Translations under genes and position numbers: made by a program
Notes under the pieces: model-generated
Told to the model about the DNA's origin: nothing
Database searches by the model: none
Seen by the model: only the letters and a program-made list of their open reading frames with translations
NCBI RefSeq assembly: GCF_053078305.1
Contig: NZ_CP166879.1
Strand: one strand, 5' to 3'
Length of the DNA: 64,000 nt
Part shown: piece by piece, positions 1 to 29,250 of the stretch
Numbering within the stretch: the stretch's first letter is position 1
Layout of the letters: each line of letters starts with the position of its first letter

Positions 1-935
1 GCCTTTAGCCAGGATTCAATAAAGTCGGCCTGGCTATAGATCTCCGCAAGCTGCTCAATGGTTAACAGAGGTACACGTGCGCTGGCATTGGTGATTATTT
101 CGCTGACAGGCTTTGTCAGATCTTCAAAATCGCTGGCCGCTGTTTGTAAATGCTGCATTTTCTGGGCAGTGCAAATAGCTTTTGCTTTACAGAAGCGGCA
201 CTGTTTTTCTCCAGGTATGAAGTTTTCCAGCGGTAGTGTCTCAATGCCTTCGCATTCAGCAATATTGAGAACAAGGATCGCACTGGTTGCGGCCTCCTGT
301 GCCCGTTCACCGAAAGACTGAAGTTCCTGTACGGTTAACGACCATTCTGAAACGTGGTTGAGCCTTGGCTGGTGAATAAATAATCTTACAGTCTCAAAGT
401 CATACAGCATGCTGAATTGTTCGAGCGCACCCAGAGCATACAGTTGTAGTTGCTCATTTTGTTCTGCATCAATGCGGACGCCTTTGCCATATTTCAGGTC
501 GTGGATTTGTAATTCGTTACCAGCGATGATTATGCCGTCGGCAGTTCCGAAAGATTCTTCCACCCCCGTTATATGTGAGAAATCAACACGTTGTTCAACC
601 AATAGTTCATTATTCTGTGCAAGAGTCCAGACCGTATCAACATACCGGCCAACGGCTTCGACCATTTCATCATCCACCTGTGGGCCAGATGTATCATCAG
701 GATTTTCGCGAAGGGGGTATGAGCCGAGAAACATAGAAACATTGCATCCGGCGTAGTGTTCCGGGTGGCTTTGCCTGTTTCGTAGAACTTTTTCAGCAAG
801 CGCGTGCGCTGCAGTGCCCTCGATTGCAAAAGTTGTTTCTTTATCCGGTTGTGTGGCCTCCAGCGCCAGACTTCCTGGGCAGCGCATCCATCGATGCGCT
901 GATGATGGAGAAAGTTGTGCATGAACGTCTGGCAT
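1..935 (-). CDS. PD-(D/E)XK exonuclease, Cas4-like with C-terminal Cys cluster; C-terminus runs off window start
   Basis: Manual minus-strand translation from ATG at 935-933 gives [23 protein letters not shown]... open to position 1; contains HDLKYGK and [10 protein letters not shown] (C-x2-C-x5-C); absent from ORF track because no stop lies in the window. Confidence 0.55.
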
Positions 936-937
936 GA

Positions 938-1840
938 TTAACCCTCCAGTGCTTTTTCAGCCAGGGTGATTACTTCAGCGAGATTTTCATCCGTTACTTC
1001 ACCAAGTTTCCTGGCTCCCTGTTTTTCCAGAATTGCAATAGCTTCTGCCCGGTAACCCCCTTTTGCTAACTGGAGGATCAACCCTTCAGCTTGTTTGCGT
1101 AGTGCCGCGAAATCAATTGTATGGTCATCTTTGGCGTCATTATTCTGGCTGGAATTTGCTGCGTCTCTGCGTGCAAATTCTTCCTGCAGCTGAAGGTACT
1201 CAACACGGTTGATCTCGATATGGCCTTTTTTAAGCATCTCGTTCAACTTGCGTAAGGTGTGGAGTTCACTGGCTGCTGTGCCGGATACATTTTTGACGTA
1301 AAACGGCCCCGTGCGTTCTCCATCTTTGTTACTGGCCTTTTTCGGCTTAACTTCATCACGCCCATCTGCAGGTGCATCAAGTAGTTGCTCGGCAAAAGCA
1401 CGTCGCTCGCCGATGGTTGGCAGGTCGTCCCAGAACTTAAGAATGTTACGGGACAGGTCCAGAAGAGCGGGTTTATGCAGTGCCCTGGCTCGTTTGACGC
1501 CCTGCAATGCGCTGTCGAGAGCATCAATCTGAACTACTCGTTTATCGCCTTCAGCATCACGGTAGGCAACAGCACGTTGCAGCATGTCTTCTGTGATAGG
1601 GGTGGCTACCGGGTAGAAACCAGCCAGTGCGATAACGTCGCTGAACTCCAGATCATCCAGTGTCATTGCCGCTGACATATTTTCAGTTTCAGTTGCTGTA
1701 TCCCGACATTCCTGCACTCGTGAAATCGTGTCAGGATGCATAACAATACCTGATGCCATTGTGCGGATAAGACGTTCAAGCAGCGCATTATGTTGTGCCA
1801 GAAGTTGATTATTAAGTTCGAGACTGGTTTCTAAACTCAT
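938..1840 (-). CDS. Hypothetical phage early protein (300 aa), immediately upstream of the nuclease; possibly replication or recombination associated
   Basis: ORF track; stop 2 nt before nuclease ATG; no family recognised. Confidence 0.55.
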
Positions 1841-1986
1841 ACTGTGGTCCTCGCAACAAGGAGAATGAAAGTGATGATCAGACCGAGCGCAGTGGCAACG
1901 GCCAGACCGGTCATCAAATCGAAGTTTTTACGGCGATAACGGAGAACATCGCGCCCCGTCAGTCGATAGAGGTGTTCAGGTTTCAT
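1838..1986 (-). CDS. Small predicted membrane protein (49 aa)
   Basis: Manual translation [49 protein letters not shown]; stop overlaps ATG of downstream gene (ATGA). Confidence 0.3.
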
Positions 1987-2102
1987 CGGTTGTATTCCTT
2001 TTTTCATATCGGGGAGCGCGCTGTTGCGAGTGCGCTTTCAGACATAAAAAAGCCCGTCACTTGCGGCGGGCAAAGACTACACACAGCAATTACATGGATG
2101 AT

Positions 2103-2297
2103 TCAGTTGGTATTGTGCGTACGTGGTACCACAAGGTTGAAGCGGACACGCCAGTGCGTTGCAATGGTATGCAGGAAAGCACCACATCCAGGGCAGTGCT
2201 CATAACATTCGTTGATTTGGTATCGTTTTGGCTTTGGTGTCTGAAGCTGTGTTTGGCAAGCAGGGCATTCACCTTTGAGCGGTTTATATGTTTTCAC
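2103..2297 (-). CDS. Small zinc-ribbon-like protein (two CxxC pairs: CPAC and CPGC)
   Basis: ORF track 64 aa; position in early-left operon. Confidence 0.35.
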   Translation of the reverse strand: MKTYKPLKGECPACQTQLQTPKPKRYQINECYEHCPGCGAFLHTIATHWRVRFNLVVPRTHNTN

Positions 2298-2580
2298 GCC
2301 GTTTCCTCATTCAGTTCACTTTGGTGGTTCGGCGGCTTCGACTTGTATCAGTAGGCAGTGCTTCGCCGCACCCCAAAGGGAACTTACTGACCCGTATTGC
2401 CGACATCCTGTCCCGCCACGGTCCCGACGCATGGTTTAGAGTCGCGCCGTTCGACTTGTGGCTAAAGATACAATTTGAGTTGTATTGTGTAAACCACAAA
2501 CGTGGTATTTTGTGGGGTGTGAATACTACTTTATTGATATTTAAGTGAATTTAATTTGTAAGACTTTACAAATGGGGTAA

Positions 2581-2600
2581 GGGAGGCTGTTACGCCTCCC
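2581..2600. terminator. GC-rich hairpin (GGGAGGC / GCCTCCC) 20 nt downstream of repressor stop; possible terminator or attenuator
   Basis: Inverted repeat read directly; flanking U-tract is weak. Confidence 0.3.
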
Positions 2601-2619
2601 GATATTTACGGTGGGAATA

Positions 2620-3243
2620 CTAACGTTTACGGCGGTAAATACGGTGTTCGATCATTACACCTATGATCTGTAAGTTCATATCTGCACTACGAAAAATAGG
2701 GTAATCAGGATTTAGGGGGATTAATTCAAAGTCGTCGATGCCGATTCCTAATGGACGGTATTTTTTAAATGTAGCTTCGTGACCGTCGTTTTTGGCGACA
2801 ACAAACTCCCCTGGTGCAGGACATAGTTCAGGATCGATGATAACAATGTCTCCTTCTTTAAACTCTGGTTGCATGCTGTCGCCATCAATACGTAATGCGA
2901 AGCATGTTTCTGGAATGTCAGAGTCTGCCAAAATATATTCAAATTCCCCTGTCAGATCTGTTATGTCTCTTGCTTCTGTAAGCTCTCCTGCCTGAACGTA
3001 ACTTAATATAGGTATGCGTCTGGTACTTATCTCCGCGAGAGGCATAATATTTTTACCGTTCAGTAGCCAGTCTGGGCTACATTTCAAGGCCTTAGCCAGA
3101 TCCAGAAGATTGCGTGGCTTTCTGGTTCGTCCACTTTCGATGGATTCTATGGATTGTTGGCTAACCCCTGCAGAATTCGCTACTTCCACTTGAGTCATTC
3201 CTAATTCCAAACGACGTGCTTTAAAACGGGCTGCGAGAGACAT
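2620..3243 (-). CDS. CI-like phage repressor (N-terminal HTH, C-terminal S24 LexA-type autopeptidase)
   Basis: HTH signature LGMTQVEVANSAGVSQQSIESIE; S24 motifs GDSM and FKKY; start taken at ATG 3243 (ORF track extends to 3294). Confidence 0.8.
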   Translation of the reverse strand: MSLAARFKARRLELGMTQVEVANSAGVSQQSIESIESGRTRKPRNLLDLAKALKCSPDWLLNGKNIMPLAEISTRRIPILSYVQAGELTEARDITDLTGEFEYILADSDIPETCFALRIDGDSMQPEFKEGDIVIIDPELCPAPGEFVVAKNDGHEATFKKYRPLGIGIDDFELIPLNPDYPIFRSADMNLQIIGVMIEHRIYRRKR

Positions 3244-3363
3244 GGGATTAGTCCTTCTGGGTTGTATTAATGTGTATACCCACATTAAAAACAATTTTTG
3301 TTGTATTTGACAAACCTCATTTGTTGTTGCTAAATACCACTAAAATTGTATGAGGTGAAAGCA
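3244..3363. promoter_or_regulatory. Divergent immunity control region: operator-like palindrome TTAATGTG-N6-CACATTAA (3267-3288), perfect -35 TTGACA (3307-3312), Shine-Dalgarno GAGGTG before cro
   Basis: Read directly from sequence; -10 element is weak. Confidence 0.45.
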
Positions 3364-3576
3364 ATGACCTTAGCGACCCGAGTAAAAGAACGACGTAAAG
3401 AACTCAAAATGACGCAAGTTACGTTGGCTGAGCTCACAGGAGTGAGCCAGCAGGCAATAAACAGAATTGAAAGTGGTGTTATTGCTCGGCCACGTTATCT
3501 TCTTGAAATGTCTATAGCATTGGATTGCGACCCTAATTGGCTGTTGTATGGCTCACAAAACGATAAAAAGGCTTAA
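3364..3576 (+). CDS. Cro-like HTH regulator
   Basis: HTH signature MTQVTLAELTGVSQQAINRIESG; divergent from repressor; start at ATG 3364 with SD. Confidence 0.7.
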   Translation: MTLATRVKERRKELKMTQVTLAELTGVSQQAINRIESGVIARPRYLLEMSIALDCDPNWLLYGSQNDKKA

Positions 3577-3579
3577 CCC

Positions 3580-5772
3580 ATGTCCGATAGCAAACCATGG
3601 GGAGCTACGCCTGATGAGTGGTTTCATTTCGACCTGGTATTGGGGAGAACTGATCATCTTCTCCCAGTTGTATGTAACCCCGGTGCGACCATATCCCCTG
3701 ATAGTAAACTGAAAGCGCTGGGTAAGACGCCAAGTCGCTATAACCGGGACCGCCAGGTCACCGGTATTGCTCAATGGACCGGGTATGTTGTTACTGAGCA
3801 TGATTTTGCCCGCTGGTCGAATGAACCGGATTATGGCATCTGCGTGCGTACAGGCCATGGCTGGCTGGCGCTGGACGGCGATAGCGAAGATGAAGACATT
3901 CAGGCAGATATTCGCAAAACGCTTGTGCAACTTCTGGGGGAGTTGCCGCCGCGACGCTGGCGAGCAAACAGTAATAAGTGTCTGTATCTGCTGGCCGTTG
4001 ATGGTGATTTCCGTAAGCGTATCCATCGCCTGGCGGGGGATATGGGCATTATCGAGTTGCTGGCGAACGGGCAGCAGTTCGTTGCCTGTGGTACGCACAG
4101 CAGCGGCGCGCGTATTGAATGGGACGGTGGTTTGCCGGATGAACCTCCGGCTATTACTGGTGAGCAGCTTGAAACGCTGTGGCAGCGCCTGGCTGAACAA
4201 CTCCCTGTGTCGGTAACCACCGAAGCGGGCAACACGAAGATGCGCGACCGATCAGCATTCACGCCCGGCGCGACGGATGATACAGCTGAATATCTTGATG
4301 CCAATGGCTGGACGCTGCTGGATGGCGCAAATGGTGAACGATATATCCGCTGTCCGTTTGAAGACGGCCACAGTAGCGGGGGCGATCCAACAAGCACAGC
4401 TTATTTTCCTGCGGGAACCGCGGGCTTTGAGCAGGGGCATTTTAAATGCCTGCATGCCAGTTGTGCGCATCGTGATGACGGAGATTTCCTTAATGCCATC
4501 GGGATCCGCAACGACGATTTCGAAGATCTGACCAGCACCGAAGTGGCGGAACCTTTACCGCTGCCTGCTTTCGAGCGTGATAAATGGGGGCGTATCGAGG
4601 CAACCATCAGCAACGCAGCCAAAGCAGTAGTACGCCCTGATTTTGTGGACATCGATATTCGCTTTGACCAGTTCCGCGACGAAATCATGTTTGCCTCTGC
4701 AGGATCCGGACAATGGCGAGCATTCACCGATGCGGATTATGCGCGCCTGCGCATCACGATGGAAAAGCGGGGATTTAAACCTGTTGGTCGTGAACTTATT
4801 CGCGATGTGGTGTTACTTGCAGCCGATGAACAACCATTCGATTCAGCGATTACCTGGCTGAACGGGCTGGAGTGGGATGGCGTGCCGCGCATCGAATGTT
4901 TCTACCATACGCACTTCGGTACAGCCGACACGCCTTATACCCGTGCGGTGTCTATGTACATGTGGACCGCGTTGGCGGGGCGAGTACTGGAGCCAGGCAT
5001 CAAAGCGGATATGGTGCCGATCCTCGTTGGTCCGCAGGGCTGCGGTAAGTCTTCCGGAGTGGAGGCACTGAGCCCTGATCCTGCGTTTTTTACTGAAATC
5101 TCTTTTGCCGAAAAAGACGATGATCTCGCTCGAAAAATGCGTGGTCGGCTGGTGGCAGAGATTGGTGAACTGCGCGGACTTAATACCAAAGAGCTGGAGT
5201 CAATCAAAGCGTTTGTGACGCGTACTCACGAAAACTGGATCCCGAAATACCGGGAGTTCGCCACCCAGTTTCCTCGTCGCCTGGTGTTCGTTGGTACCAC
5301 CAATGAGGACGAATTCCTTGCGGACAAGACTGGTAACCGTCGCTGGCTCCCCGTGGAAGTGTCGAAAGTCGACGTGAAAGCGATAAAAAGAGATCTCCTT
5401 TTACTTTGGGCTGAGGCTCGTGAGGTGTTTCAGCGTCTGGGGGGTATCCAGTTCCGTGAGGCTGAACAACTGGCAGCGAGTGTCCATGAACAGTACACCA
5501 TCAAGGATGCTTGGCTTGAAACGGTAGAGAAATGGCTCGACACGCCAGACCTGATGACTAATGAACTTCCGCGAAATTGCGAATTTTTACGCGCAAGTGA
5601 TGTTTTGCGTGATGCGATTGGGCTAAATCCTGACCGCATCGGAAAACGCGAAGAAATGCGAATTAGTAATGTTTTGCAAAATTGCGGGTATAAGCGTGTC
5701 CAAAGGCGAATTGGGGGGAAAATGACTCGAATTTTTGAGGCGGTGTCCCAACCTGTACCAGCCTCAAAATAG
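3580..5772 (+). CDS. Phage replication primase-helicase (N-terminal primase-polymerase-like region, C-terminal P4/VirE-type NTPase)
   Basis: 730 aa; Walker A GPQGCGKSS; family assignment from recall. Confidence 0.75.
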   Translation: MSDSKPWGATPDEWFHFDLVLGRTDHLLPVVCNPGATISPDSKLKALGKTPSRYNRDRQVTGIAQWTGYVVTEHDFARWSNEPDYGICVRTGHGWLALDGDSEDEDIQADIRKTLVQLLGELPPRRWRANSNKCLYLLAVDGDFRKRIHRLAGDMGIIELLANGQQFVACGTHSSGARIEWDGGLPDEPPAITGEQLETLWQRLAEQLPVSVTTEAGNTKMRDRSAFTPGATDDTAEYLDANGWTLLDGANGERYIRCPFEDGHSSGGDPTSTAYFPAGTAGFEQGHFKCLHASCAHRDDGDFLNAIGIRNDDFEDLTSTEVAEPLPLPAFERDKWGRIEATISNAAKAVVRPDFVDIDIRFDQFRDEIMFASAGSGQWRAFTDADYARLRITMEKRGFKPVGRELIRDVVLLAADEQPFDSAITWLNGLEWDGVPRIECFYHTHFGTADTPYTRAVSMYMWTALAGRVLEPGIKADMVPILVGPQGCGKSSGVEALSPDPAFFTEISFAEKDDDLARKMRGRLVAEIGELRGLNTKELESIKAFVTRTHENWIPKYREFATQFPRRLVFVGTTNEDEFLADKTGNRRWLPVEVSKVDVKAIKRDLLLLWAEAREVFQRLGGIQFREAEQLAASVHEQYTIKDAWLETVEKWLDTPDLMTNELPRNCEFLRASDVLRDAIGLNPDRIGKREEMRISNVLQNCGYKRVQRRIGGKMTRIFEAVSQPVPASK

Positions 5773-5773
5773 A

Positions 5774-5925
5774 GGTTGGTACATTTTAACTAATTGAATT
5801 TAAAGGTCAGTACCAACTGTACCAACTGTACCAACCTAATTACTAAGAACCCCATATATATATATAAGTCGCTTGGGGAAAAGGTTTGAAAAGAGCTGGT
5901 ACAGGTGGGTACAGGTTGGTACAGG
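5774..5925. repeat. Iteron cluster: GTTGGTACA once and TGTACCAAC x3 (5811-5835), AT-rich (TA)n core (5853-5866), inverted GTACAG-type repeats x3 (5896-5924); candidate replication origin
   Basis: Repeats read directly; sits immediately after the primase-helicase stop. Confidence 0.6.
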
Positions 5926-6053
5926 CCGAACAAGGAATTTTTTGCACATAACAGCGTGTAATAAGCGAATCGGAACTGCGTTATCCACACCCACGGATAA
6001 ACAGACGTGGTTCTCAGAAAATTTTTTCGTAGCAAAACGTAGAGGTCAGAGCT

Positions 6054-6476
6054 ATGCGTAATATTCAACAGGTTTTAGAGCGCTGGGGTGGCTGGGCAGC
6101 GAGTGAAGGTGGTAGCGTCTACTTTCCTCCTGTTGCAGCCGGGTTTAAGAATCTGCTACCCGCGACGCAGTCTGGAAGGCTGAAATGCAGTGACAATGAC
6201 GGTCTTATCATCAACTCCGCTATGAGCTGCCTGAAGAAAAAAGATCCGTATCTGTGCACGCTCCTTGAGTGGCATTACGTCCAGGCCATGCCCGTGCGGG
6301 CGATGGGTGAGAAGCTCGGCGTATCTCACACCCACGTTCTGAAGAGGCTTCAGGCGGCAGAGGGATTTATTGACGGTTGCTTAGCCATGCTGGATGTGGT
6401 GCTCGAAATGGATCAGTCGGTTCAGTCAAAGCCTCAGGCTATCAGGACTTTGCGTAGGAGCTGCTCGGCGGCATAA
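6054..6476 (+). CDS. Late-gene antiterminator, Q-like (putative)
   Basis: 140 aa; upstream of lysis cassette; resembles small Q-type antiterminators from recall. Confidence 0.45.
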   Translation: MRNIQQVLERWGGWAASEGGSVYFPPVAAGFKNLLPATQSGRLKCSDNDGLIINSAMSCLKKKDPYLCTLLEWHYVQAMPVRAMGEKLGVSHTHVLKRLQAAEGFIDGCLAMLDVVLEMDQSVQSKPQAIRTLRRSCSAA

Positions 6477-6507
6477 TATCCAGCAATCAATCACGTAAGG
6501 GAACCAG

Positions 6508-6684
6508 ATGGCTCTGATCAGCGTTCGCAACAGATTTGAAAGCTTCATGGAACAGAGGTACCCAGACCTGTCGTTGCAGGTCAAAGGTAATATTGGCGCA
6601 TCAATGAAGGCCCAACTTGGCATCGGATTGAACGAGAATTGTACAGTGAAGATGTTACTTACTGTGATTCAGCAGTTCAGTTGA
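6508..6684 (+). CDS. Small hypothetical protein (58 aa)
   Basis: Manual translation MALISVRNRFESFMEQRYPDL...; SD AAGGGA upstream; stop overlaps next start. Confidence 0.3.
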   Translation: MALISVRNRFESFMEQRYPDLSLQVKGNIGASMKAQLGIGLNENCTVKMLLTVIQQFS

Positions 6685-6848
6685 TGTGGACACTCTTTCA
6701 GGCAGGTGTTCTGGCCGAACGAAGAGCTACCAGCGTTACGCTTCCTGCGCTGAAGGCAAAGCCGGATAGCTTCTACGATGCGGGTTATAACGAAGGTATT
6801 CAGGACTGTCGTAAACATCTGACGGCATCAGGCATCAAGGTAAGATAA
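6684..6848 (+). CDS. Small hypothetical protein (54 aa), translationally coupled to upstream small ORF
   Basis: ATG at 6684 overlaps upstream TGA (TGATG); ORF track lists a longer form from 6639. Confidence 0.3.
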   Translation: MWTLFQAGVLAERRATSVTLPALKAKPDSFYDAGYNEGIQDCRKHLTASGIKVR

Positions 6849-6914
6849 AAAATAGTTGTGGAATTCCAAAAAGCCGATTAGCCTGATATCTGTTGAAAAC
6901 AGTTCATCACGAAG

Positions 6915-6940
6915 AGGCTTCCGCAAGGGGGCCTTTTTTA
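6915..6940 (+). terminator. Rho-independent terminator (stem AGGCTTCC / GGGGGCCT, GCAA loop, T-run)
   Basis: Hairpin plus TTTTT read directly. Confidence 0.5.
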
Positions 6941-7167
6941 TTGCCCCATTCTGGGGAAAAGTTAATAAAACAGGGCTTTCGCTGCGAAAAAACGCTATGC
7001 AGTTTTTGCCCTTTTTTATGCACCTTTTATTCACTCGAATTTCGTCATTCTGGACCACTTAAGTTGATTAAATAGGCCTTTCATCGCAAATCTATTGCGA
7101 GCGGGGATCGTGTGGTTCCTATAACGTACATTATGTTAAATAACTTCCTTTTTTAACAAATTTAACA

Positions 7168-7193
7168 AGGTTCGCTATGGCGAACTTTTTTTT
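7168..7193 (+). terminator. Rho-independent terminator (GTTCGC-TATG-GCGAAC then T8); possible tR'-like terminator ahead of the lysis genes
   Basis: Perfect 6-bp stem and 8 T read directly; tR' role is inference by analogy with lambda. Confidence 0.55.
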
Positions 7194-7294
7194 GTATTCA
7201 GGGCCCACCGAAGGACGGCTCATAACCCAATCCTACGGGCGTATACGCAGGGCCCGCCTTTCAACAACACCCCGTAATGGCGGAGGTGGGAAGT

Positions 7295-7636
7295 ATGAAA
7301 ATGCACAATGCTCCTCATTCCTGGCCTGACTTACTGGAACTCTTACAAAGTTGGTGGCGTGGAGATACGCCGTTGGGCGCAGTGGTTATGTCAATTGTTA
7401 TGGCTGGCTTGCGCATTGCCTATTTTGGCGGTGGCGGCGGCTGGAAACGAAAAACGCTTGAGATTTTGCTCTGTGGTGCTCTGACGCTGACCTTTGCATC
7501 CGCTCTTGAGTATGTTGGATGGCCTAAATCTCTTTCTGTTGCCATTGGTGGTGGTGTTGGGCTGATCGGTGTCGATGCTATTCGTGGGGCTGCAATGCGA
7601 GTAATCGGTAACAAGTTTGGTGGCTCTAAGGAGTAG
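7295..7636 (+). CDS. Holin, class I (three predicted TM segments) with dual-start Met-Lys-Met motif
   Basis: ATG AAA ATG at 7295-7303 after SD GGAGGTGGG; hydrophobic segments; directly upstream of endolysin. Confidence 0.7.
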   Translation: MKMHNAPHSWPDLLELLQSWWRGDTPLGAVVMSIVMAGLRIAYFGGGGGWKRKTLEILLCGALTLTFASALEYVGWPKSLSVAIGGGVGLIGVDAIRGAAMRVIGNKFGGSKE

Positions 7637-7639
7637 TTC

Positions 7640-8116
7640 ATGCAGACACTAAATTCCCAACGTAAAGCTTTCCTGGATATGGTGGCATGGTCAGAAGGAA
7701 CGGATAACGGGCGACAACCGACACGTAATCACGGTTATGACGTTATCGTCGGAGGTGAGTTGTTCACTGATTACTCCGATCACCCTCGCAAACTTGTCAC
7801 GCTAAACCCGAAGCTTAAATCAACAGCCGCAGGCCGGTATCAGCTTCTTTCACGCTGGTGGGATGCCTACCGCAAGCAGCTTGGCCTGAAAGATTTTTCG
7901 CCAGAAAGTCAGGACGCTGTGGCGCTGCAGCAGATTAAAGAGCGTGGCGCTTTACCGATGATTGACCGTGGCGATATTCGTCAGGCAATCGACCGTTGCA
8001 GCAATATCTGGGCGTCGTTACCTGGTGCAGGTTACGGTCAGTATGAACATAAAATCGGTGACCTGATTTCCAGGTTTAAAGATGCTGGTGGGGTGGTAAA
8101 TGAAGCTGACTTATAA
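7640..8116 (+). CDS. R: Endolysin, lambda R-type lytic transglycosylase
   Basis: Near-identical to recalled lambda R N-terminus (QRKAFLDM.AWSEGTDNGRQ.TRNHGYDVIVGGELFTDYSDHPRKLVTLNPKLKST). Confidence 0.9.
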   Translation: MQTLNSQRKAFLDMVAWSEGTDNGRQPTRNHGYDVIVGGELFTDYSDHPRKLVTLNPKLKSTAAGRYQLLSRWWDAYRKQLGLKDFSPESQDAVALQQIKERGALPMIDRGDIRQAIDRCSNIWASLPGAGYGQYEHKIGDLISRFKDAGGVVNEADL

Positions 8117-8624
8117 GATTGTTATCGCGGCATTTTTCTTCTCTGCCTTTGGGGCGCTCGTCTGGTCTGCAAACCATTACCACAGCAAGTATCAGGCAGA
8201 AAAGTTGCGGGCTGATAAAGCGGAAGGTGAAGCTGAATATCAAGGGAAAGTGATAGCTAATCAGGCATTAAACTTCAATCGTTTTAACCAGATAGCAGAA
8301 AAAGCAAGCCGATTAAATTCTCTGGTCGACATCGGTCACGAGAAGACAGTCATCAAATACCGTGAGGTTCTGCTCCGTGAAAAGAACTGTGATTTCCCTG
8401 TTCCTGTTGATATTGCTGTCGGGGTGCTCAACTACGCGAACCGTTTACGCGCCAGCGCATTGCACGCCGATTCCGGGGACATTGACTCAGCCGGTGATCG
8501 TGCCACTACCACCAGAACGTTGACATATTGCCAGGCTGTTCTGTGGATTAACCCACTGTTGGCAGCCATCGAGAAGGCGAATAACCAGTTGGCTGGTGTC
8601 CGACAAATAGAACAGTCCCGGTAA
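8100..8624 (+). CDS. Rz-like i-spanin
   Basis: N-terminal TM segment; follows and overlaps endolysin; contains embedded +1-frame lipoprotein ORF. Confidence 0.65.
   Translation: MKLTYKIVIAAFFFSAFGALVWSANHYHSKYQAEKLRADKAEGEAEYQGKVIANQALNFNRFNQIAEKASRLNSLVDIGHEKTVIKYREVLLREKNCDFPVPVDIAVGVLNYANRLRASALHADSGDIDSAGDRATTTRTLTYCQAVLWINPLLAAIEKANNQLAGVRQIEQSR
8377..8523 (+). CDS. Rz1-like o-spanin lipoprotein embedded in the +1 frame of Rz
   Basis: Manual translation (GTG start assumed) KRTVISLFLLILLSGC... with lipobox LSGC and proline-rich tail PVIVPLPPER; start codon uncertain. Confidence 0.5.
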   Translation: MKRTVISLFLLILLSGCSTTRTVYAPAHCTPIPGTLTQPVIVPLPPER

Positions 8625-8685
8625 TAGCATTACAGAAGCTCTTCCAGGAGGGGCTTCGATAATGACCTGATAACTGGAAAATAAA

Positions 8686-9258
8686 ATGACTAAGAAGCTG
8701 AAAGCAAAACACGAGGTGTTTTGTCGCGAGTTTCTTGTCGATCTGAATGCTACACAAGCAGCTATTCGCGCAGGCTACGTCTCCAGGCGAGCACATGTTA
8801 CGGGGGCTGAACTATACGGTAAACCTGAGATACGCGCCCGTATTAACGAGCTAAAGCAGGAGCGTATTGATCAACTGGGCATTGATGCGAATTATGTGCT
8901 GATGCGACTGGTTGAGATCGACAGGCTCGATGTGGCTGACATCCTGGAGGACGATTTAAGTATTAAGCCTCTGTCTGCGTGGCCGGAATCGTGGCGTCGG
9001 TACCTGAGTGGATTTAACCTCGCTGAAATGTTTGAGGGGCGAGGAGATGACAGAGAAATGGTCGGGATCCTTAAAAAGATTAAGTGGCCTGATAAGGTTA
9101 AAAACCTTGAGTTGCTTGGGCGTCATGTTTCTGTTCAGGCGTTTAAAGACAACGTCAAAAATGAAGTGACTGGCGCTGATGGAGGACCCGTCAGAACAGA
9201 AATTACCAACTTAACGCCGGAGCAGGCTGCAGAAGCGTATAAAAAAATGATGGGCTAA
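8686..9258 (+). CDS. Terminase small subunit (P27-type)
   Basis: 190 aa; position before large terminase; family from recall. Confidence 0.75.
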
Positions 9259-9260
9259 GT

Positions 9261-10883
9261 ATGCCGTTACCATTTCACTTCGATTTTAAACATCCTGATT
9301 ACCAGATGGTTTTTGAATGGCGGATGGAACGCTTACAGCGCATTCGCCAGAACCCTGAAATATTGCCCGTATTGAAGCAGTTTTACCGAACCAATCCGGC
9401 TCAGTTCATCATCGACTGGGGCATGACAACGGACCCGCGTAATATTGATTATGGCCTGCCGGTGACCATTCCGTTTTTACTCTTCCCTAAGCAGGAGGAG
9501 TGGATCCACTGGATTATGGAACGCTGGGGCAATCGGGAGAATGGTATTACCGAAAAATCCCGTGAAATGGGGCTCAGTTGGACCGCGATCGGACTGGCCT
9601 GCTCGCTTTGTCTCTTCAACAAAGAAATGGTTATCGGTTTCGGCTCCCGTAAAGAGGAATACGTCGACAGCACCGGTGACCCGAAAGCATTGTTCTGGAA
9701 GGCACGCAAGTTCGTGGAAACGCTACCTGTAGAGTTTCGCGGTTCGTGGAGCGAGAAGAAGCACGCGCCATATATGCGTGTTGAGTTTCCTGAAACTGGT
9801 GCCGTTATCAAAGGCGAGGCTGGCGATAATATTGGTCGTGGTGACCGTACCACGCTTTATCTGGTTGATGAGGCTGCATTCCTTCAGCGTCCTCTGCTGA
9901 TTGATGCGGCGTTGTCACAAACGACGCGTTGCCGTATCGACCTGAGTTCAGTTAACGGCATGGCTAACCCGTTCGCTCAGAAGCGTCATGGCGGGAAGAT
10001 ACCGGTATTCACATTCCACTGGCGGGATGATCCTCGCAAGGATGAAGAGTGGTATCGCAGGGAATGCGAGAAAATCGATAATCCGGTGGTGGTGGCACAG
10101 GAACTTGATCTGAACTACAGCGCATCAGCGGAAGGCGTTCTGATTCCATCCGAATGGGTACAGGCTGCCGTTGATGCGCATATCAAACTGGGTATCCAGC
10201 CAACAGGCAAACGACTTGGCGCGATGGATGTCGCCGACGAAGGCAGGGACAAAAATGCCTTTTCCACCCGTCATGGCTTCCTCCTGGAAAATGTGCGGGA
10301 ATGGTCCGGTGTGGGCAGCGACATTTATCAGTCCGTCGAGAAGGTTTTCGGCTTTTGCGAACAGGACAACCTCGAAGAGTTTCGCTTTGACGAGGACGGG
10401 CTGGGCGCTGGCGTTCGCGGCGATGCACGCGCTATCAACGAACTGCGTAACGCTGCGCGTCGACCGTCAATACTTGCCACACCGTTTCGAGGTAGTGGCG
10501 CGGTATTTGATCCGGATGATGAAGCTGTTCGCGGGGACAACGGGCAAGCCGCGCGTCTGAACAAGGACTTCTTCGCTAACGCCAAAGCCCAGAGCTGGTG
10601 GCGGTTACGTAAACTTTTTCAGAATACCTGGCGCGCCGTGGTTGAAGGTATGGCTTACAACCCGGACGAAATCATCTCAATCAGCAGTAGCATGGCACTC
10701 AAAGATCAACTCATCATCGAGCTTTCGCAGCCGACCTATTCCATTAATGGTGTGGGAAAAATCGTTATTGATAAACAGCCTGATGGGACCCGGTCGCCAA
10801 ATCTTGCCGACTCGGTGATGATCAACTATGCCCCAATGAATTCAGCCCTGAACATCTGGGAGTTGCTAGGGAGACAGGCCTGA
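9261..10883 (+). CDS. Terminase large subunit
   Basis: 540 aa; position and size; followed by portal. Confidence 0.8.
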
Positions 10884-12349
10884 TGGCACGAAACAAACAA
10901 GCCCTGCGGCGAACTGCGCAGGCCACAGCTGATGGTTATGAGAATTTTATCGCCCGCGTAGGGATGCAGACACCTAACCAGCACTCAGCATCCACCTACC
11001 GGGCTAATTTCACCAGTCGTAACCGCATGCTGGTGGAATGGTCCTATCGTTCTTCCTGGATCATCGGCGAAGCAGTCGATGCTATCCCGGATGATATGAC
11101 CCGCAAAGGCATTCGCATCACTTCGGAAATTGATGCAAAAGATCGTGGCATTCTCGAATCACAACTGGATGAGTTGCAAATCTGGGATGCGCTGAATGAC
11201 GTGCTGAAATGGTCGCGCCTCTACGGCGGCGCGGTGGGTTTCATCATGATTGAGGGGCAGGCACCAATGACCCCGCTGCGACCCGAAACCATCGGTAAGG
11301 GCAAGTTTAAGGGGATTCTCCCGCTCGACCGCTGGATGATTGACCCGGTACTGACCCGCCGCATTAAAGATATGGGGCCGGACCTGGGTAAACCTGAGTT
11401 TTATGATGTGGTGACCACAGCAACGGGAATTCCTGCCTGGCGCATTCATCACAGTCGCCTGATTCGCTTTGATGGCGTCACGCTGCCATTTCAGCAGAAG
11501 ATGACCGAGAACGAATGGGGAATGTCGGTTGTAGAGCGTATCTGGGATCGTCTTACCGCGTTCGACAGCGCTACTGTCGGTGCGGCGCAGCTGGTCTACA
11601 AGGCGCATTTGCGTACCTACAGCGTGGAGAAGCTACGCGAGCTTATCGCACTTGGTGGTCCTGCGTATGAAGCGTTGCTGAAGAATATTGACCTGATTCG
11701 ACAGTTCCAGAGCAATGAAGGCATGACTCTCATGGACTCGCGGGATAAGTTTGAAACCCATCAGTACAGCTTCAGTGGTCTGGATGACATCCTTTCACAG
11801 TTTGCAGAACAGATTAGTGGAGCTGTTGGTATCCCACTGGTGCGGTTGTTCGGACAGTCCCCGAAGGGATTTTCTACCGGCGATGCAGACCTTGCCAACT
11901 ATTACGACCGGGTAAGTTCGTTGCAGGAGAGGCGTTTACGTCTTCCGGTGCGGCGGATACTGGACATCATGCATCGTTCGGAACTTGGCAAGCCGCTCCC
12001 GGATGATTTCACATTTGAGTTTAACCCGCTCTGGCAAATGTCTGATGTCGATCGTTCAACGGTGGCATTAAATACCACCAACGCAATCAGTACAGCGCTG
12101 GGTGATGGTCTGATGACACTGAAAGCTGCTATGACTGATTTGCGCGAAAATTCTGACGTAACCGGCATCGGGGCATCCATTACCGACGAGGACATCGAGA
12201 ATGCCGAAGACGAAGCGCCGCCCGGCATCGGCGAACCTGATGACGAACCGCAGGAACCGTCAGGCGGAAATCCGCTATCGAACCAGCCTACGCAGGATAG
12301 CGCGGGCGGTCGGGGACATCGTAAATGGTCGCTACGATGGTTCAAATGA
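10883..12349 (+). CDS. Portal protein
   Basis: 488 aa with acidic low-complexity C-terminus; follows terminase. Confidence 0.75.
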   Translation: MARNKQALRRTAQATADGYENFIARVGMQTPNQHSASTYRANFTSRNRMLVEWSYRSSWIIGEAVDAIPDDMTRKGIRITSEIDAKDRGILESQLDELQIWDALNDVLKWSRLYGGAVGFIMIEGQAPMTPLRPETIGKGKFKGILPLDRWMIDPVLTRRIKDMGPDLGKPEFYDVVTTATGIPAWRIHHSRLIRFDGVTLPFQQKMTENEWGMSVVERIWDRLTAFDSATVGAAQLVYKAHLRTYSVEKLRELIALGGPAYEALLKNIDLIRQFQSNEGMTLMDSRDKFETHQYSFSGLDDILSQFAEQISGAVGIPLVRLFGQSPKGFSTGDADLANYYDRVSSLQERRLRLPVRRILDIMHRSELGKPLPDDFTFEFNPLWQMSDVDRSTVALNTTNAISTALGDGLMTLKAAMTDLRENSDVTGIGASITDEDIENAEDEAPPGIGEPDDEPQEPSGGNPLSNQPTQDSAGGRGHRKWSLRWFK

Positions 12350-12974
12350 CAGTATCACGGAAATTATTGAGACGCTGGAACGCTACAGTGAAATCATAAC
12401 CCCCTGGGCGACAAAGGTCGCGGAAAACTTTACCGCCGACATTGTACGCAAGAATGATGAGCAGTGGCGTAAACACAGCAAAACCATCAGCCGTGAGCTA
12501 CGCAATCTGGTAAACAGTGCCCCTCCAGGGCAGGTGATGAAATCCATCGTTGCTGAACAGGTTAAGTACATCAAATCGCTACCCCTCGAGGCGGCTGACA
12601 GGGTGTACGACATCCAGAATCGGGCGATAGAAGCTGTTGTTACCGGTGGGAGAGCGGAACATTTTGCTAAAGAAATAGCCGCATCGGGTGATATAGCAAA
12701 GTCCAGAGCTGACCTGATTGCCCGTACTGAACTTGGACGTGCAACCGGCGCGCTGGATCAGGCGCGTGCGCTGTCAATTGGTTCGAATGGTTATATCTGG
12801 CGTACAGCCGAAGATGGTGATGTCAGGCATTCTCATCGGGAAATGGAAGGTAAATTTGTCGAATGGGGCAAACCTCCAACGCTTGACGGCATGACAGGTC
12901 ACGCTGGCGAGCTCCCGAATTGTCGCTGTTATAAAGAAATTGTTTTTCCCACCTCCCATTCTTACCCCGCCTGA
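12201..12974 (+). CDS. Head morphogenesis protein (Mu F / SPP1 gp7 family)
   Basis: Motif region WRTAEDGDVRHSHREMEGKFVEWGKPP; start uncertain, the annotated ATG overlaps the portal gene by 149 nt. Confidence 0.65.
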   Translation: MPKTKRRPASANLMTNRRNRQAEIRYRTSLRRIARAVGDIVNGRYDGSNDSITEIIETLERYSEIITPWATKVAENFTADIVRKNDEQWRKHSKTISRELRNLVNSAPPGQVMKSIVAEQVKYIKSLPLEAADRVYDIQNRAIEAVVTGGRAEHFAKEIAASGDIAKSRADLIARTELGRATGALDQARALSIGSNGYIWRTAEDGDVRHSHREMEGKFVEWGKPPTLDGMTGHAGELPNCRCYKEIVFPTSHSYPA

Positions 12975-12988
12975 ATCGCAGGTAACAC

Positions 12989-14209
12989 ATGAAATATTTT
13001 TTCAATACCCGGCTGGGGGAAACCCGCTATCAGCTGGCTGACGGCTCGTTGCTGTGCAAAGACGTGCCGATAGGACGAACAGGTAAGCAGCTCTATGGTG
13101 CTGATGACCTGCCAAAACTGAAACCCGATAAGTTCGGTGAAATAGTCGTCACGCGTTCTCCTGAGCAGGTATTCCATCCCGCCACGCTTGCCTCATTCGA
13201 AGGAATGAGTATCACGGTGTTGCATCCCGAGGATGAAAACGGGGATGTGCGGCTGGTGAATCCAGAGAACTGGAAAGAGCTCGCGGTCGGGCATCTTCAG
13301 AATGTCCGGCGCGGGGCGGGTGTGCAGTCTGATTTGATGCTGGCTGACCTTATCGTCAAAGACGAAAACGCCATTCAGCTGATCGAAGATGGCCTGCGCG
13401 AAGTGTCGTGTGGCTATGACGCGGAATATAAACAGGCTGAGCCGGGTAAGGCTCAGCAGGTCGCTATTACCGGAAACCATGTGGCTCTTGTCCCTAAAGG
13501 CAGAGCCGGAAATCGTTGTGCAATTGGAGACAGAGACACAATGGCAAATCAAAAGAAAAGCTGGTGGACCCGCATGCGCACGGCCATCAAAACGGGTGAC
13601 GCTGACACCATGAACGAACTGGTGGAGTCGGCTCCCGCATCGGTTACAGGAGATGAGGGGGATTTGCCGCAGGGCGTTAATCTCAACATCAACCTGTCCC
13701 CGCAGCAACCGCTACCGGACAAAGCACCAGAGATGGGCGGAGGTCCAACCGGCGACAGTGATGATGACCTCAAAACATTACTGAAAGCCCTGCTGGCTAA
13801 GCTGGAAGGAAATGCGACGGGCGATAACGACAATAAGCCTGACGATAATCCGACCGGTGACGGCGAGGACGATGAAGAGGAAACCACGATTACTGGTGAC
13901 TCAGCCTGGCGTGCCGAAGTTATCGTTCCGGGTATCGATCTGAGCCGTAAGATGAAACCGACCGCGTTCAAACGTGAGGTTCTGGCTTCTGCTGACAAAA
14001 CGCTGGTTCGCCAGATAGTCGGTGATGCGGATATCCGCAAATTGCCGAAACAATCGGTCGACATGGCGTTTAATGCCGTGTCTGAGATTGCCAAAGGGCG
14101 AAACACCCGCGCCACCACCGGCGATGCACAGCGCCCAAACATGGGCATGACCAGTATCGCTTCCCTGAACAAACAAAACGCTGAATTCTGGGCAAACCGT
14201 AAAGGGTAA
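12989..14209 (+). CDS. Putative prohead protease/scaffold protein (Mu gpI-like)
   Basis: 406 aa with acidic low-complexity segment; gene order. Confidence 0.45.
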   Translation: MKYFFNTRLGETRYQLADGSLLCKDVPIGRTGKQLYGADDLPKLKPDKFGEIVVTRSPEQVFHPATLASFEGMSITVLHPEDENGDVRLVNPENWKELAVGHLQNVRRGAGVQSDLMLADLIVKDENAIQLIEDGLREVSCGYDAEYKQAEPGKAQQVAITGNHVALVPKGRAGNRCAIGDRDTMANQKKSWWTRMRTAIKTGDADTMNELVESAPASVTGDEGDLPQGVNLNINLSPQQPLPDKAPEMGGGPTGDSDDDLKTLLKALLAKLEGNATGDNDNKPDDNPTGDGEDDEEETTITGDSAWRAEVIVPGIDLSRKMKPTAFKREVLASADKTLVRQIVGDADIRKLPKQSVDMAFNAVSEIAKGRNTRATTGDAQRPNMGMTSIASLNKQNAEFWANRKG

Positions 14210-14212
14210 AAA

Positions 14213-14719
14213 ATGAATAATGTATTTCTGTACCGGATGCCTGTTGGCATTGCCGGGGCCGTCTCTCGCCCGCAGGACTTAACCGTCGAACCGGTGGTCC
14301 TTAAATCCGATAACGCCTTCGCTGCCTATGGCCTGGCTGGTAAATACGATGATGACGGTTTTTTCGTGCCGCTGGCAGATGGTGATACCGCAGACAAGGT
14401 GAAGGGGATCTACGTGCGCCCTTATCCGACCACTTCGCAGCCGGACATGGTTCGCCAGGTGGGGACTGGCAAGAACTTCCCGGGCGACGCCATGAAGCGT
14501 GGCTACGTGACCGTTAATCTCGGTTCTGATTTTGATGCCAGCACCATCAAAAAAGGCGACCCGGTATACGTTGTCGTCTCCACTGATGAATCCATCAAAG
14601 TGCCGCTGGGTGGATTCATGGCCACGTCAGTCAGTGGCAAAAACGTGGTGCTGACCAACGCTGAATTCACAGGTGCCGGAGATGCTGACGGCAATGCAGA
14701 AATTTCCTGGAAGATTTAA
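14213..14719 (+). CDS. Putative capsid structural or decoration protein
   Basis: 168 aa; between scaffold and major capsid. Confidence 0.4.
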   Translation: MNNVFLYRMPVGIAGAVSRPQDLTVEPVVLKSDNAFAAYGLAGKYDDDGFFVPLADGDTADKVKGIYVRPYPTTSQPDMVRQVGTGKNFPGDAMKRGYVTVNLGSDFDASTIKKGDPVYVVVSTDESIKVPLGGFMATSVSGKNVVLTNAEFTGAGDADGNAEISWKI

Positions 14720-14730
14720 GGAACAGACGA

Positions 14731-27837: not shown

Positions 27838-28292
27838 TGGCGAAAAATGACTTTAAAGCGTTTGCAACGGATCGAAATGCCAATGTTATATCGCAGGAGG
27901 AATGGGAAGCGTTGCCCGCGCTTTTATCCGGATTTACAGCAGGGAAAGCCTCCAGTGCGCAAGTCAATAAGGTTATTCGGCAGGTCAGCTTTATTGCTGC
28001 AGCTCTGGCCCAGTTTGTAAGTGATAAAACGCAACGGGATGTGCTTGATAATGGTGATCTGCCCGGTTTTGTTGAATTGCTGGGATCGGGGTTTGCTGTT
28101 GAATACCTGAGCCGCAAGAATCCGTTTGGTGATATCAAATCGGATGGCACGGTGAAAACGGCTCTCGAAAACCTTGGTTTGGGAGAAGAGCACAGCGTTA
28201 AGCCGGGTTGTTTCTGCCTGCGTCAGCTTCCGCCCGGCCTGCAATTTCAGCTGAATCAGACTAATGGAAGCCATAGCCGCATCAATCAGTGA
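27837..28292 (+). CDS. Tail fibre, constant N-terminal part, fused in the present orientation to only 34 codons beyond the crossover site
   Basis: ATG 27837 overlaps gpI stop; reads through site at 28162-28187 (N-L-G-L-G-E) and stops at 28290. Confidence 0.6.
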   Translation: MAKNDFKAFATDRNANVISQEEWEALPALLSGFTAGKASSAQVNKVIRQVSFIAAALAQFVSDKTQRDVLDNGDLPGFVELLGSGFAVEYLSRKNPFGDIKSDGTVKTALENLGLGEEHSVKPGCFCLRQLPPGLQFQLNQTNGSHSRINQ

Positions 28293-29224: not shown

Positions 29225-29250
29225 TCCTGCTTTTGTCAGGGAGATCTACC

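Follow-up and report, generated by a model that had tools for sequence, protein, structure and literature searches.

How is lysogeny controlled at a locus where a cI-like repressor gene and a Cro-like gene diverge from a short spacer, and does the perfect palindrome within this spacer serve as the operator? The locus lies near one end of a 64,000-nucleotide stretch of DNA, referred to here as the window, and is best explained as the immunity module of a SEN34-like temperate myovirus of ~40 kb that is integrated in E. coli yfhL. With a probability of roughly 85%, we favor a reading in which the module would operate as a cI/Cro switch homologous to that of phage 434, with six 14-bp operators and RecA-stimulated cleavage of cI, and in which the palindrome is not an operator.

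A repressor with a LexA-type protease domain and its Cro paralogue

The cI-like repressor gene occupies 2620–3243 on the minus strand (ATG at 3243, stop codon at 2620–2622), is preceded by the ribosome-binding site AAGGA (3252–3256), and encodes 207 amino acids. An N-terminal HTH_3 domain (48 bits) is combined with a C-terminal Peptidase_S24 domain (PF00717), which scores 77.4 bits against a cutoff of 23.3 bits and spans profile positions 1–116 of 116. The GDSM motif and lysine partner proposed in the initial annotation are borne out: G121-D122-S123-M124 is encoded at 2872–2883, with S123 (2875–2877, minus strand) at the S24 nucleophile position, and K160 (2764–2766, minus strand) takes the position of the dyad partner. 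The predicted cleavage site, A85-G86, is encoded at 2986–2991 on the same strand. In an alignment of cI with 434 cI, lambda cI, and LexA, A85-G86, S123, and K160 form invariant columns; the lambda pairing was seen independently in a PDB search. Moreover, the Ala-Gly site and the Ser/Lys dyad are kept across all lineages compared. These sequence features support a complete LexA-type self-cleavage apparatus in cI, and homology makes RecA/SOS-dependent induction via cI a reasonable prediction. RefSeq labels the ORF as “LexA family protein”.

On the plus strand, the Cro-like gene (3364–3576, ribosome-binding site GAGGTG at 3352–3357) encodes a 70-residue, all-α HTH protein that matches HTH_3 with 54 bits. 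Its similarity to residues 1–63 of cI (57% identity, E = 2e-22) identifies it as a paralogue of the cI N-terminal domain. Immediately after cro follows a VapE primase-helicase gene, and no CII-like gene is present after cro.

In PDB sequence searches, the best matches of cI were the N-domain of the 434 repressor (1per/2or1, E = 6e-16) and full-length lambda cI, and Cro matched 434 Cro (3cro/2cro, E = 9e-15). Judged by sequence, the 434 repressor and 434 Cro are the closest characterized relatives of the pair, with 38% identity over the full length of cI and 54% identity for Cro. Gene order and divergent layout are shared with the 434 immunity region, as are the Ala-Gly, Ser, and Lys residues. 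The original description of divergent repressor and Cro genes forming an immunity switch stands. Lambda cI and LexA share a homologous C-terminal domain with cI, whose Ala-Gly and Ser/Lys residues align with A111-G112, S149, and K192 of lambda. In contrast, lambda uses 17-bp operators and a Cro that is not an HTH paralogue of cI, and LexA has a winged-helix N-domain and binds CTGT-N8-ACAG boxes.

A megablast search of 2400–3700 against deposited phage genomes gave no match, and relatives were identified through a protein search and a pattern scan across viral contigs. Conservation of the immunity module, with purifying patterns, extends to 43 genomes of E. coli and to 49 viral contigs. Among deposited phage genomes, the closest repressors (58–60% identity) belong to Enterobacter phage CobraSix, Klebsiella phage ST16-OXA48phi5.2, and Yersinia phage vB_YenM_29.18, hereafter the CobraSix group.

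Two predicted control regions with 434-style operator sites

The spacer between cI and cro (3244–3363) measures exactly 120 bp, as initially reported, and is 67.5% A+T. Its blocks, namely OR3, the 9-mer ATTTGACAA, OR2, an 8-bp -10 region, and OR1, align position for position with 434 OR, so that each of the three 14-bp sites has a positional homologue of the same name in 434. OR1 (ACCACTAAAATTGT, 3336–3349) lies between the PR -10 element and the cro ribosome-binding site, differs from ACAA-N6-TTGT by one mismatch, and is identical in 46 of the 49 viral contigs. OR2 (ACCTCATTTGTTGT, 3314–3327) abuts the -35 hexamers of PR and PRM and occupies most of the PR spacer; across relatives its outer AC...TTGT bases are invariant, while the inner bases vary. 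OR3 (ACAATTTTTGTTGT, 3291–3304) is placed inside the spacer of a PRM-like leftward promoter and matches the 434 consensus exactly. The half-sites of the OR core read AC[A/C][A/T] and are of the 434 type, ACAA/ACCA-N6-TTGT/TGGT.

These operators are interleaved with two divergent promoters. A PR-like promoter for cro (3307–3335, plus strand) combines the -35 hexamer TTGACA (3307–3312) with a 17-bp spacer and the -10 element CTAAAT (3330–3335), which may alternatively be read as TAAATA with an 18-bp spacer. The consensus TTGACA, already recognized in the initial annotation, sits within ATTTGACAA, which is identical to the -35 region of 434 PR and located at the same position; it is therefore not a chance match. 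The -10 block is co-positioned with GAAAAT in 434 and CAGAAT in CobraSix, and is too weak for PR to be reported by a consensus promoter scan. For cI, we infer a PRM-like promoter (3284–3313, minus strand) from sequence and from homology with 434 and CobraSix. It comprises the -35 hexamer TTGTCA (3313–3308), an 18-bp spacer holding OR3, and the -10 element TTTAAT (3289–3284). The two -35 hexamers overlap back to back (TTGACA/TTGTCA, 3307–3313), as they do in 434. Beside OR3, [T]ATTAA[A] is the sole part of the cI leader common to unrelated leader types.

A second set of sites lies beyond the cI stop codon and carries the same motif. OL1 (ACAATTTGAGTTGT, 2470–2483), an exact ACAA-N6-TTGT, is located in the spacer of a PL-like promoter and is the positional homologue of 434 OL1. 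OL2 (ACCACAAACGTGGT, 2493–2506) is a symmetric ACCA-N6-TGGT that abuts the PL -35 hexamer and shares base 2493 with it; its outer 4 + 4 bp are conserved with one exception (ACCG), and its central bases vary. OL3 (ACTACTTTATTGAT, 2525–2538), the positional homologue of 434 OL3, has a weak right half and appears as AC[C/T]A-N6-TGAT in 36 of 42 viral contigs. Conservation of the OL/PL set was likewise seen in 36 of 42 viral contigs. The gap of 9 bp between OL1 and OL2 and the further 17–18 bp to OL3 agree with 434. PL itself (TTTACA-17-TATCTT, 2465–2493, minus strand) has the layout of its counterparts in 434 and CobraSix and is the sole σ70-like site reported by the promoter scan between 2400 and 3700. 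Downstream of it lies the leftward early operon, with a small Zn-ribbon ORF and then replication genes. Between cI and OL, 20 nt past the cI stop codon, the GC-rich hairpin GGGAGGC-TGTTAC-GCCTCCC (2581–2600) is a probable terminator or insulator of cI. It has no clear U-tract and was not reported by a terminator scan; relatives carry different hairpins at this position, and that of CobraSix is followed by a T8 run.

Exact ACAA-N6-TTGT sites occur twice in the 64 kb, as OR3 and OL1 and thus once per predicted control region, with 1.57 expected window-wide. Across the 49 viral contigs and divergent E. coli prophages, most variation in the operator region affects central, non-contacted bases, with conservation of the outer operator bases, both -35 hexamers (PR and PRM), and the -10 block of PR. 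Backed by this conservation pattern, the six 14-bp 434-style sites are predicted to bind the repressor and Cro. The A/T tracts at the operator centers fit the indirect readout described for the 434 repressor (PMC3317979). OR2 and OL3 are poor matches to the half-site consensus, and the PR -10 element is weak. The perfect-consensus site of OR is OR3 rather than OR1, the reverse of a simple expectation based on 434. A candidate for a fourth operator, TCCTTCTGGGTTGT (3252–3265, over the cI ribosome-binding site), is not kept in other leader types and was treated as a chance occurrence.

While the architecture follows 434 with identical block lengths across OR, the specificity elements have diverged. 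Positions 3 and 4 of the half-sites are relaxed here (ACCA, ACCT, ACTA), and at residue 33 of the recognition helix, cI has Ser and Cro has Arg, where the 434 proteins have Gln and Leu, respectively. In contrast, the Gln-Gln pair of this helix is invariant in an alignment of cI and Cro with the 434 proteins. In 434, this pair is responsible for recognition of the A and C base pairs at operator positions 1 and 2. Replacement of Gln33 by Ser in cI and by Arg in Cro fits the relaxation of the third and fourth half-site positions. With regard to homoimmunity, OR3 and OL1 conform to the 434 consensus, OR1, OR2, and OL2 use ACCA or ACCT, and helix residues 27 and 33 differ; we infer that the module is probably heteroimmune to 434. 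Further differences from 434 are a cI leader of 47 nt containing the palindrome instead of 31 nt, the lack of an N gene or a rexA/B-like gene in the interval from cI to PL, VapE in place of CII after cro, and a SEN34-like myovirus rather than a lambdoid siphovirus as carrier of the module. The CobraSix group shares the architecture and spacing of OR and OL, but has ACAG/CTGT half-sites, the recognition helix RQQSW(Q/G), a cI leader of 30 nt devoid of a palindrome, and a CII gene after cro.

The palindrome over the predicted PRM start

The palindrome highlighted in the initial annotation, TTAATGTG-TATACC-CACATTAA, is present at 3267–3288 with perfect 8 + 8 arms around an N6 center. It overlaps the -10 element and the transcription start of the predicted PRM, the latter expected near 3277–3279, and its right arm supplies the -10 hexamer TTTAAT. 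Since 2.9% of shuffled spacers contain a perfect inverted repeat (arms of at least 8 nt, loop of 0–10 nt) and the window contains 31 repeats of this kind, the palindrome is only mildly unexpected. Scans of the 64-kb window and of the left arm of a near-identical prophage, with three mismatches allowed, revealed no other copy of the palindrome or of a half-site.

Comparison with relatives separates the palindrome from the operators. It occurs in 10 of the 49 viral contigs, while the other 39 have the same OR core without it, among them contigs in which the cI DNA-binding domain is 100% identical and the recognition helix of Cro is unchanged. In L024, the one homologous leader variant, the two arms are not complementary. 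Neither 434 nor the CobraSix group has a counterpart, and the operators of the latter sit at the positions of the 14-bp sites. Among the carriers, the 16 arm bases are invariant, and the sole polymorphisms of the 47-bp cI leader, amounting to three alleles, lie in the 6-bp center. As the carriers are 97.5–100% identical over the compared 201-bp segment, the invariance of the arms is weak evidence.

Invariant arms around a variable center are the pattern of a real dimer-binding site, and our main explanation does not account for this pattern. At the same place, E. coli B379 carries a different inverted repeat, AATAAT-N8-ATTATT, which is not retained in most contigs of that leader type; a conserved hairpin position is therefore not indicated.

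The initial proposal, in which the palindrome acts as the operator for control of the switch by the S24 repressor (and Cro), draws on its perfect symmetry, its location in the right spacer, its uniqueness in the window, its overlap with the -10 element and start of the leftward promoter, and the invariant arms and variable center of the carriers. However, it is positioned upstream of the PR -35 hexamer and consequently cannot occlude PR, and no second copy or half-site, with three mismatches allowed, accompanies PL or any other part of the prophage. Moreover, the site-for-site alignment of the spacer with 434 OR, the recurrence of the 14-bp motif in the OL/PL set, and the absence of the palindrome from prophages and viral contigs that share the operators, and in some cases even have an identical cI DNA-binding domain, all speak against the proposal. 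Noncomplementary arms in L024 and the missing counterpart in 434 and the CobraSix group point in the same direction. We consider an operator role highly improbable; the palindrome is very probably not a repressor binding site.

It is less improbable, yet still unlikely, that the palindrome serves as an auxiliary site at which a dimeric regulator of host or prophage lowers maintenance transcription of cI solely in this lineage. The predicted PRM -10/+1 region is a classical position for repression, the three alleles spare both the arms and the remaining leader, and shuffling rarely yields such a repeat. On the other hand, we found no candidate binder. The CRP consensus is TGTGA-N6-TCACA and the LexA box CTGT-N8-ACAG; TGTG and CACA are 6 nt apart in the palindrome versus 8 in the CRP consensus, and no CTGT-N8-ACAG occurs anywhere in the immunity region. 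A LacI/GalR-type site or one for Zur, Fur, or TyrR likewise appears unlikely from the spacing or the central bases. Further, the prophage contains no additional copy, most immunity regions with the same operators lack the palindrome, and the near-identity of the carriers devalues the constancy of the arms. Alternatively, an RNA hairpin in the cI leader might act on mRNA stability or processing: The cI-sense strand forms a stem of 8 bp, extendable to 12 pairs, that lies 11 nt ahead of the ribosome-binding site. Yet, the folding energy is ordinary (z = -1.4; 20 of 200 shuffles fold as well), the hairpin is not conserved in relatives, and the predicted PRM -10 element places the start within the palindrome, so that the hairpin would not be part of the PRM transcript. 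An Rfam search returned no meaningful match for the palindrome, and we regard this hairpin role as very unlikely. Beyond supplying the PRM -10 hexamer, the palindrome is most likely a lineage-specific sequence without a conserved role.

Prophage integrity and the predicted switch

The window begins inside the prophage, and the integrase gene lies outside of it; in a 98.8–99.8% identical prophage, an integrase gene and a small HTH gene are located ~11 kb to the left of cI. An 18-bp att core (TTCACACATATCACAATT) is repeated at both prophage ends, the right one at 31072–31089. Within the window, the structural ORFs, including 12989–14209 and 22887–23951, are intact, and the structural block of phage SEN34 is 83.6% identical to that of this prophage. 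SEN34 itself was induced with mitomycin C (PMC5261728). Taken together with the features of the repressor, inducibility of the element is plausible.

Conversely, the switch could be a relic, belonging to a cryptic prophage or depending on a repressor that RecA cannot cleave, and thus not be SOS-inducible. A close relative in strain FDAARGOS_1059 has three frameshifted genes, two of them structural, and the missing CII-like gene would likewise be compatible with decay. We deem this unlikely, as the corresponding structural ORFs are intact here, the cleavage site and catalytic dyad are conserved in all lineages, the att repeats and, in the near-identical prophage, the integrase are present, the module is maintained in E. 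coli genomes and viral contigs alike, and the related SEN34 responds to mitomycin C. The GenBank “phage” records of vB_EcoM-606R2 and relatives, whose structural genes are 98% identical, were rejected as evidence for virions, because they represent prophage regions retaining host tadA, pgpC, and yfhH. Literature searches found no paper on vB_EcoM-606R2 and its relatives and nothing specific on this prophage or its immunity region.

By analogy with 434 and lambda, the 434-homologous switch would operate as follows. Dimers of cI bound to OR1/OR2 and OL1/OL2 would silence both PR and PL and would probably stimulate PRM, while Cro would bind the same sites and shut PRM by occupying OR3. Upon DNA damage, RecA filaments would stimulate self-cleavage of cI at A85-G86 via the S123/K160 dyad. 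Loss of cI would free PR, allowing expression of cro, the VapE primase-helicase, Q, and the lysis and virion genes, and would free PL with the replication and recombination genes and the excision functions.

For binding studies, this reading implies that an EMSA on the palindrome would probably be negative and that the six 14-bp sites (3291–3349 and 2470–2538) are the likelier targets. We give only a small chance to the palindrome being a lineage-specific fourth control element, a dimeric-regulator site over the PRM -10 and start. If it were, a signal other than cI, Cro, or RecA could stop repressor maintenance, and spontaneous induction would be tuned in the ~20% of these immunity regions that carry the palindrome. 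The module represents a naturally occurring specificity variant of the repressor/operator pair of phage 434, the one best understood structurally, and is otherwise a routine prophage immunity region for which RefSeq annotation at the protein level already exists. With the Gln-Gln pair kept, residue 33 changed, and half-site positions 3 and 4 relaxed, this variant may offer a comparison case for HTH recognition.

The cI and Cro proteins

The 120-bp control region described by the initial annotation separates the start codons of a 207-aa cI-like ORF on the minus strand (ATG at 3243, stop at 2620) and a 70-aa Cro-like ORF on the plus strand (3364-3576). Pfam places HTH_3 at residues 8-60 of the former and also in the latter, and confirms the proposed S24 peptidase at full length (Peptidase_S24, 77 bits versus a cutoff of 23); RefSeq names the two proteins 'LexA family protein' and 'helix-turn-helix domain-containing protein'. 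Among solved structures, the sequences nearest to this pair are the N-terminal domain of the 434 repressor (E 6e-16), 434 Cro (E 9e-15), and lambda cI at full length (E 2e-15). The Cro-like protein shows 57% identity to repressor residues 1-63 and 54% to 434 Cro, which by sequence comparison marks the two proteins as a 434/P22-style pair, with Cro paralogous to the DNA-binding domain of the repressor. The expected GDSM motif and lysine correspond to G121-M124 and K160. An alignment with LexA and the cI proteins of 434 and lambda shows no variation at the scissile bond (Ala85-Gly86), at the nucleophilic Ser123, or at Lys160 as the base, and the lambda columns recur independently in the structure-database sequence match. 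By homology, the predicted self-cleavage machinery of cI is complete.

Predicted operators in the right and left control regions

As an independent probe for operators, the 434 consensus ACAA-N6-TTGT matches perfectly at just two places in the 64-kb window, against 1.57 expected anywhere in it. The cI/cro spacer has one (3291-3304), and the second (2470-2483) lies ~135 bp past the cI stop, where OL and the leftward early promoter PL are expected. We aligned the spacers of the window, the 434 immunity region, and three phages with repressors at 58-60% identity to the window cI (CobraSix, Klebsiella ST16-OXA48phi5.2, and Yersinia vB_YenM_29.18), and found that they correspond block for block. 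OR3 (3291-3304; ACAATTTTTGTTGT in the window, ACAAGAAAAACTGT in 434) is followed by a 9-mer with the -35 of the cro promoter PR (ATTTGACAA in both), where the anticipated TTGACA lies at 3307-3312, by OR2 (3314-3327; ACCTCATTTGTTGT versus ACAAGATACATTGT), by the 8-bp -10 block (TGCTAAAT versus ATGAAAAT), and by OR1 (3336-3349; ACCACTAAAATTGT versus ACAAGAAAGTTTGT), after which a ribosome-binding site and cro come in both. The CobraSix group shares this layout but has the half-sites ACAG/CTGT. Invariant across the alignment are the outer AC and TGT of every operator, TTGACAAAC, and the AATAC junction between the PR -10 block and OR1.

The left control region likewise aligns with 434 OL/PL, comprising OL1 (2470-2483), a 9-bp linker (ATTGTGTAA in the window, ATGTTGTAA in 434), OL2 (2493-2506, ACCACAAACGTGGT), and OL3 (2525-2538). 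The three sites overlap TTTACA-17-TATCTT on the minus strand, the sole sigma-70-like promoter reported by a scan of 2400-3700. Just downstream of the predicted PL start lies a 33-nt element (CCCGACGCATGGTTTAGAGTCGCGCCGTTCGAC, 2423-2455) that matches part of the Enterobacter phage CobraSix PL leader at 94% identity within otherwise unrelated DNA; a nut/put-like or other RNA signal is one possible role, and no N gene is recognisable in the window's phage. A second perfect 8+8 inverted repeat, ATTTGTAA-GACT-TTACAAAT, occupies 2554-2573, with OL3 on one side and the GC hairpin that follows cI on the other; the related prophage of strain B379 retains it in part, and that of LH50-c lacks it.

The palindrome and the leftward promoter

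The palindrome proposed as the operator is present as TTAATGTG-TATACC-CACATTAA at 3267-3288; it occurs once only in the window, and the prophage holds no second copy. Taken alone it is only mildly surprising, as perfect inverted repeats with arms of at least 8 nt appear in 2.9% of shuffles of the AT-rich spacer and number 31 in the window. Its region contributes no conserved column to the alignment of the window, 434, and the CobraSix group. The B379 and LH50-c prophages, ~78-79% identical to the window in DNA over the cI/cro spacer, have cI and Cro with DNA-binding domains essentially like those of the window and retain OR1-3, the -35, the -10 block, and OL1-3; their stretch of 43-47 bp from OR3 to the cI start bears no relation to that of the window and lacks the palindrome. 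A viral-contig scan with the OR3 plus PR -35 core as probe returned 49 contigs, 46 of them with an identical OR1. OR2 keeps AC...TTGT with varying inner bases, and 36 of 42 testable contigs have recognisable OL1-3 sites that vary mostly in the central six bases, the pattern expected of 434-type sites, since their centres are read indirectly (PMC3317979). The palindrome is present in only 10 of the 49 and missing from the other 39, among them L013 (5 copies), L024, and L056, whose cI residues 1-65 are 100% identical to the window's. The L024 leader is recognisably homologous to that of the window, yet its two 'arms' are non-complementary. As the same DNA-binding domain occurs in contigs with the palindrome and in contigs that lack it, cI cannot require this sequence. 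The palindrome is very probably not the operator; conservation identifies the 14-bp sites as the predicted operators.

The palindrome overlaps the predicted leftward cI promoter PRM, placed by homology to 434 and CobraSix and by direct sequence reading. Its predicted -35 (TTGTCA, 3313-3308, minus strand) overlaps the PR -35 back to back, the 18-bp spacer includes OR3, and the predicted -10 (TTTAAT, 3289-3284, minus strand) forms the outer end of the right arm, so that the palindrome would span the PRM -10 and the predicted start. The sole leader element common to all leader types is [T]ATTAA[A] adjoining OR3. All palindrome carriers have the same 47-bp leader, arms included, except in the central spacer, where three alleles occur (TATACC, TATCCC, TATCTC). 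Fixed arms around a variable centre recall a dimer-binding site, but the evidence is weak because the carriers are 97.5-100% identical over the compared 201-bp segment. We consider a genuine auxiliary site unlikely, and no protein could be put forward as its binder. The palindrome has the wrong spacing for a CRP site, does not match a LexA box, and as an RNA hairpin folds no better than shuffles.

The predicted switch, its prophage, and neighbouring elements

To the demonstrated anatomy of the switch we add a sequence of events inferred from 434 and lambda. Dimers of cI on OR1/OR2 and OL1/OL2 would repress PR and PL, with OR2-bound cI probably activating PRM, and Cro would occupy the same sites and shut PRM via OR3. 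RecA filaments would promote cI self-cleavage at Ala85-Gly86, freeing PR for cro, the VapE-type primase-helicase (3580-5772), Q (6054-6476), and then lysis and virion genes, and freeing PL for the replication and recombination arm. The recognition-helix Gln-Gln is invariant and matches the invariant half-site AC. Residue 33 is Ser in the window cI and Arg in its Cro, in contrast to Gln and Leu in 434, a change that matches the variable half-site positions 3 and 4 (ACAA, ACCA, ACCT, ACTA); speculatively, it might let cI and Cro favour different site subsets. The perfect-consensus right operator here is OR3, not OR1. Within 3576-5772, cro is followed after a 3-nt gap by a 730-aa VapE-domain protein (PF05272), in our reading a primase-helicase, with no CII-like gene downstream of cro; Q comes after a further 280-bp gap.

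The window begins within the prophage, and the integrase lies outside it. In strain FDAARGOS_1059, whose prophage is 98.8% identical over window positions 1-15647 and 99.8% over the immunity region, a tyrosine integrase and a small HTH gene adjoin yfhL, ~11 kb to the left of cI. An att core of 18 bp, TTCACACATATCACAATT, is found at the left junction there (L001 8216-8233) and at 31072-31089 in the window, in the first (5') codons of yfhL (ferredoxin), which sets the right boundary at ~31.09 kb and bounds an element of ~40.5 kb. The prophage provides a replacement yfhL 5' end at its left junction; beyond the right boundary lie yfhH, pgpC, tadA, mltF, purL, and the GlmY sRNA (39447-39594). Structural genes frameshifted in FDAARGOS_1059 are intact ORFs in the window, and the virion module is 83.6% identical to that of Salmonella phage SEN34, a likeness covering this module. 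SEN34 is a myovirus with lambda-like regulation whose production is raised by mitomycin C (PMC5261728). Given the integrase and att sites of the relative, the intact structural ORFs, and the likeness to SEN34, inducibility appears plausible and is not contradicted. One end of GenBank ON470579.1 ('Escherichia phage vB_EcoM-606R2') consists of host DNA with tadA, pgpC, and yfhH; the integrase end is missing, and the repressor differs from the window's. The record has the look of a prophage excised by computation, belonging to the same family and yfhL site and seemingly heteroimmune to the window's.

Towards the right prophage end, the sole LexA-box-like CTGT-N8-ACAG match in the window (CTGTAATTATGTACAG, 30875-30890) directly precedes the ATG of a 92-aa ORF (30594-30872, minus strand; phrog_17793, unknown function), a possible moron under SOS control. 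Oppositely oriented tail-fibre and tail-fibre-assembly ORFs adjoin a Hin/Pin-type DNA invertase (29215-29805), and 27800-29810 is probably an invertible host-range segment. The first ORF after PL, in the position of N in lambda and 434, is unannotated (2103-2297, minus strand, 64 aa, GTG start, GAGGA ribosome-binding site); its two CxxC pairs form a zinc-ribbon-like pattern with weak Pfam matches to zf-IS66 and Zn_ribbon_TFIIB and no PHROG match, and it is intact in LH50-c with one substitution. In its last 16 codons begins an RprA look-alike that continues through the 3' UTR (2042-2151, minus strand, in the PL leader; Rfam RF00034, 48.2 bits against a gathering threshold of 70, E 5e-5). The match is confined to the 3' half, where it is near-perfect and takes in the terminator (AAUUGCUGUGUGUAGUCUUUGCCCG...CGGGCUUUUUU); this half corresponds to RprAproc, the 47-nt processed form of RprA that is active alone (PMC9262595). 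B379 conserves a 40-nt core at 100% identity between flanks that are ~74% identical. The element is present in 178 of 5426 E. coli genomes, 27 of its places being on plasmids, and carries an annotation in none; our literature search turned up no account of an RprA mimic in a phage.

This module shows all the defining features of 434-type immunity regions and of S24 repressors that sequence can test. It differs from 434 in its relaxed half-sites, the changed recognition-helix residue 33, a longer cI leader, the lack of rex, N, and cII, and its carriage by a SEN34-like myovirus. The useful outcome is the reassignment of the operators to the 14-bp sites and the demotion of the palindrome; the RprA look-alike may hold more interest than the immunity switch itself.
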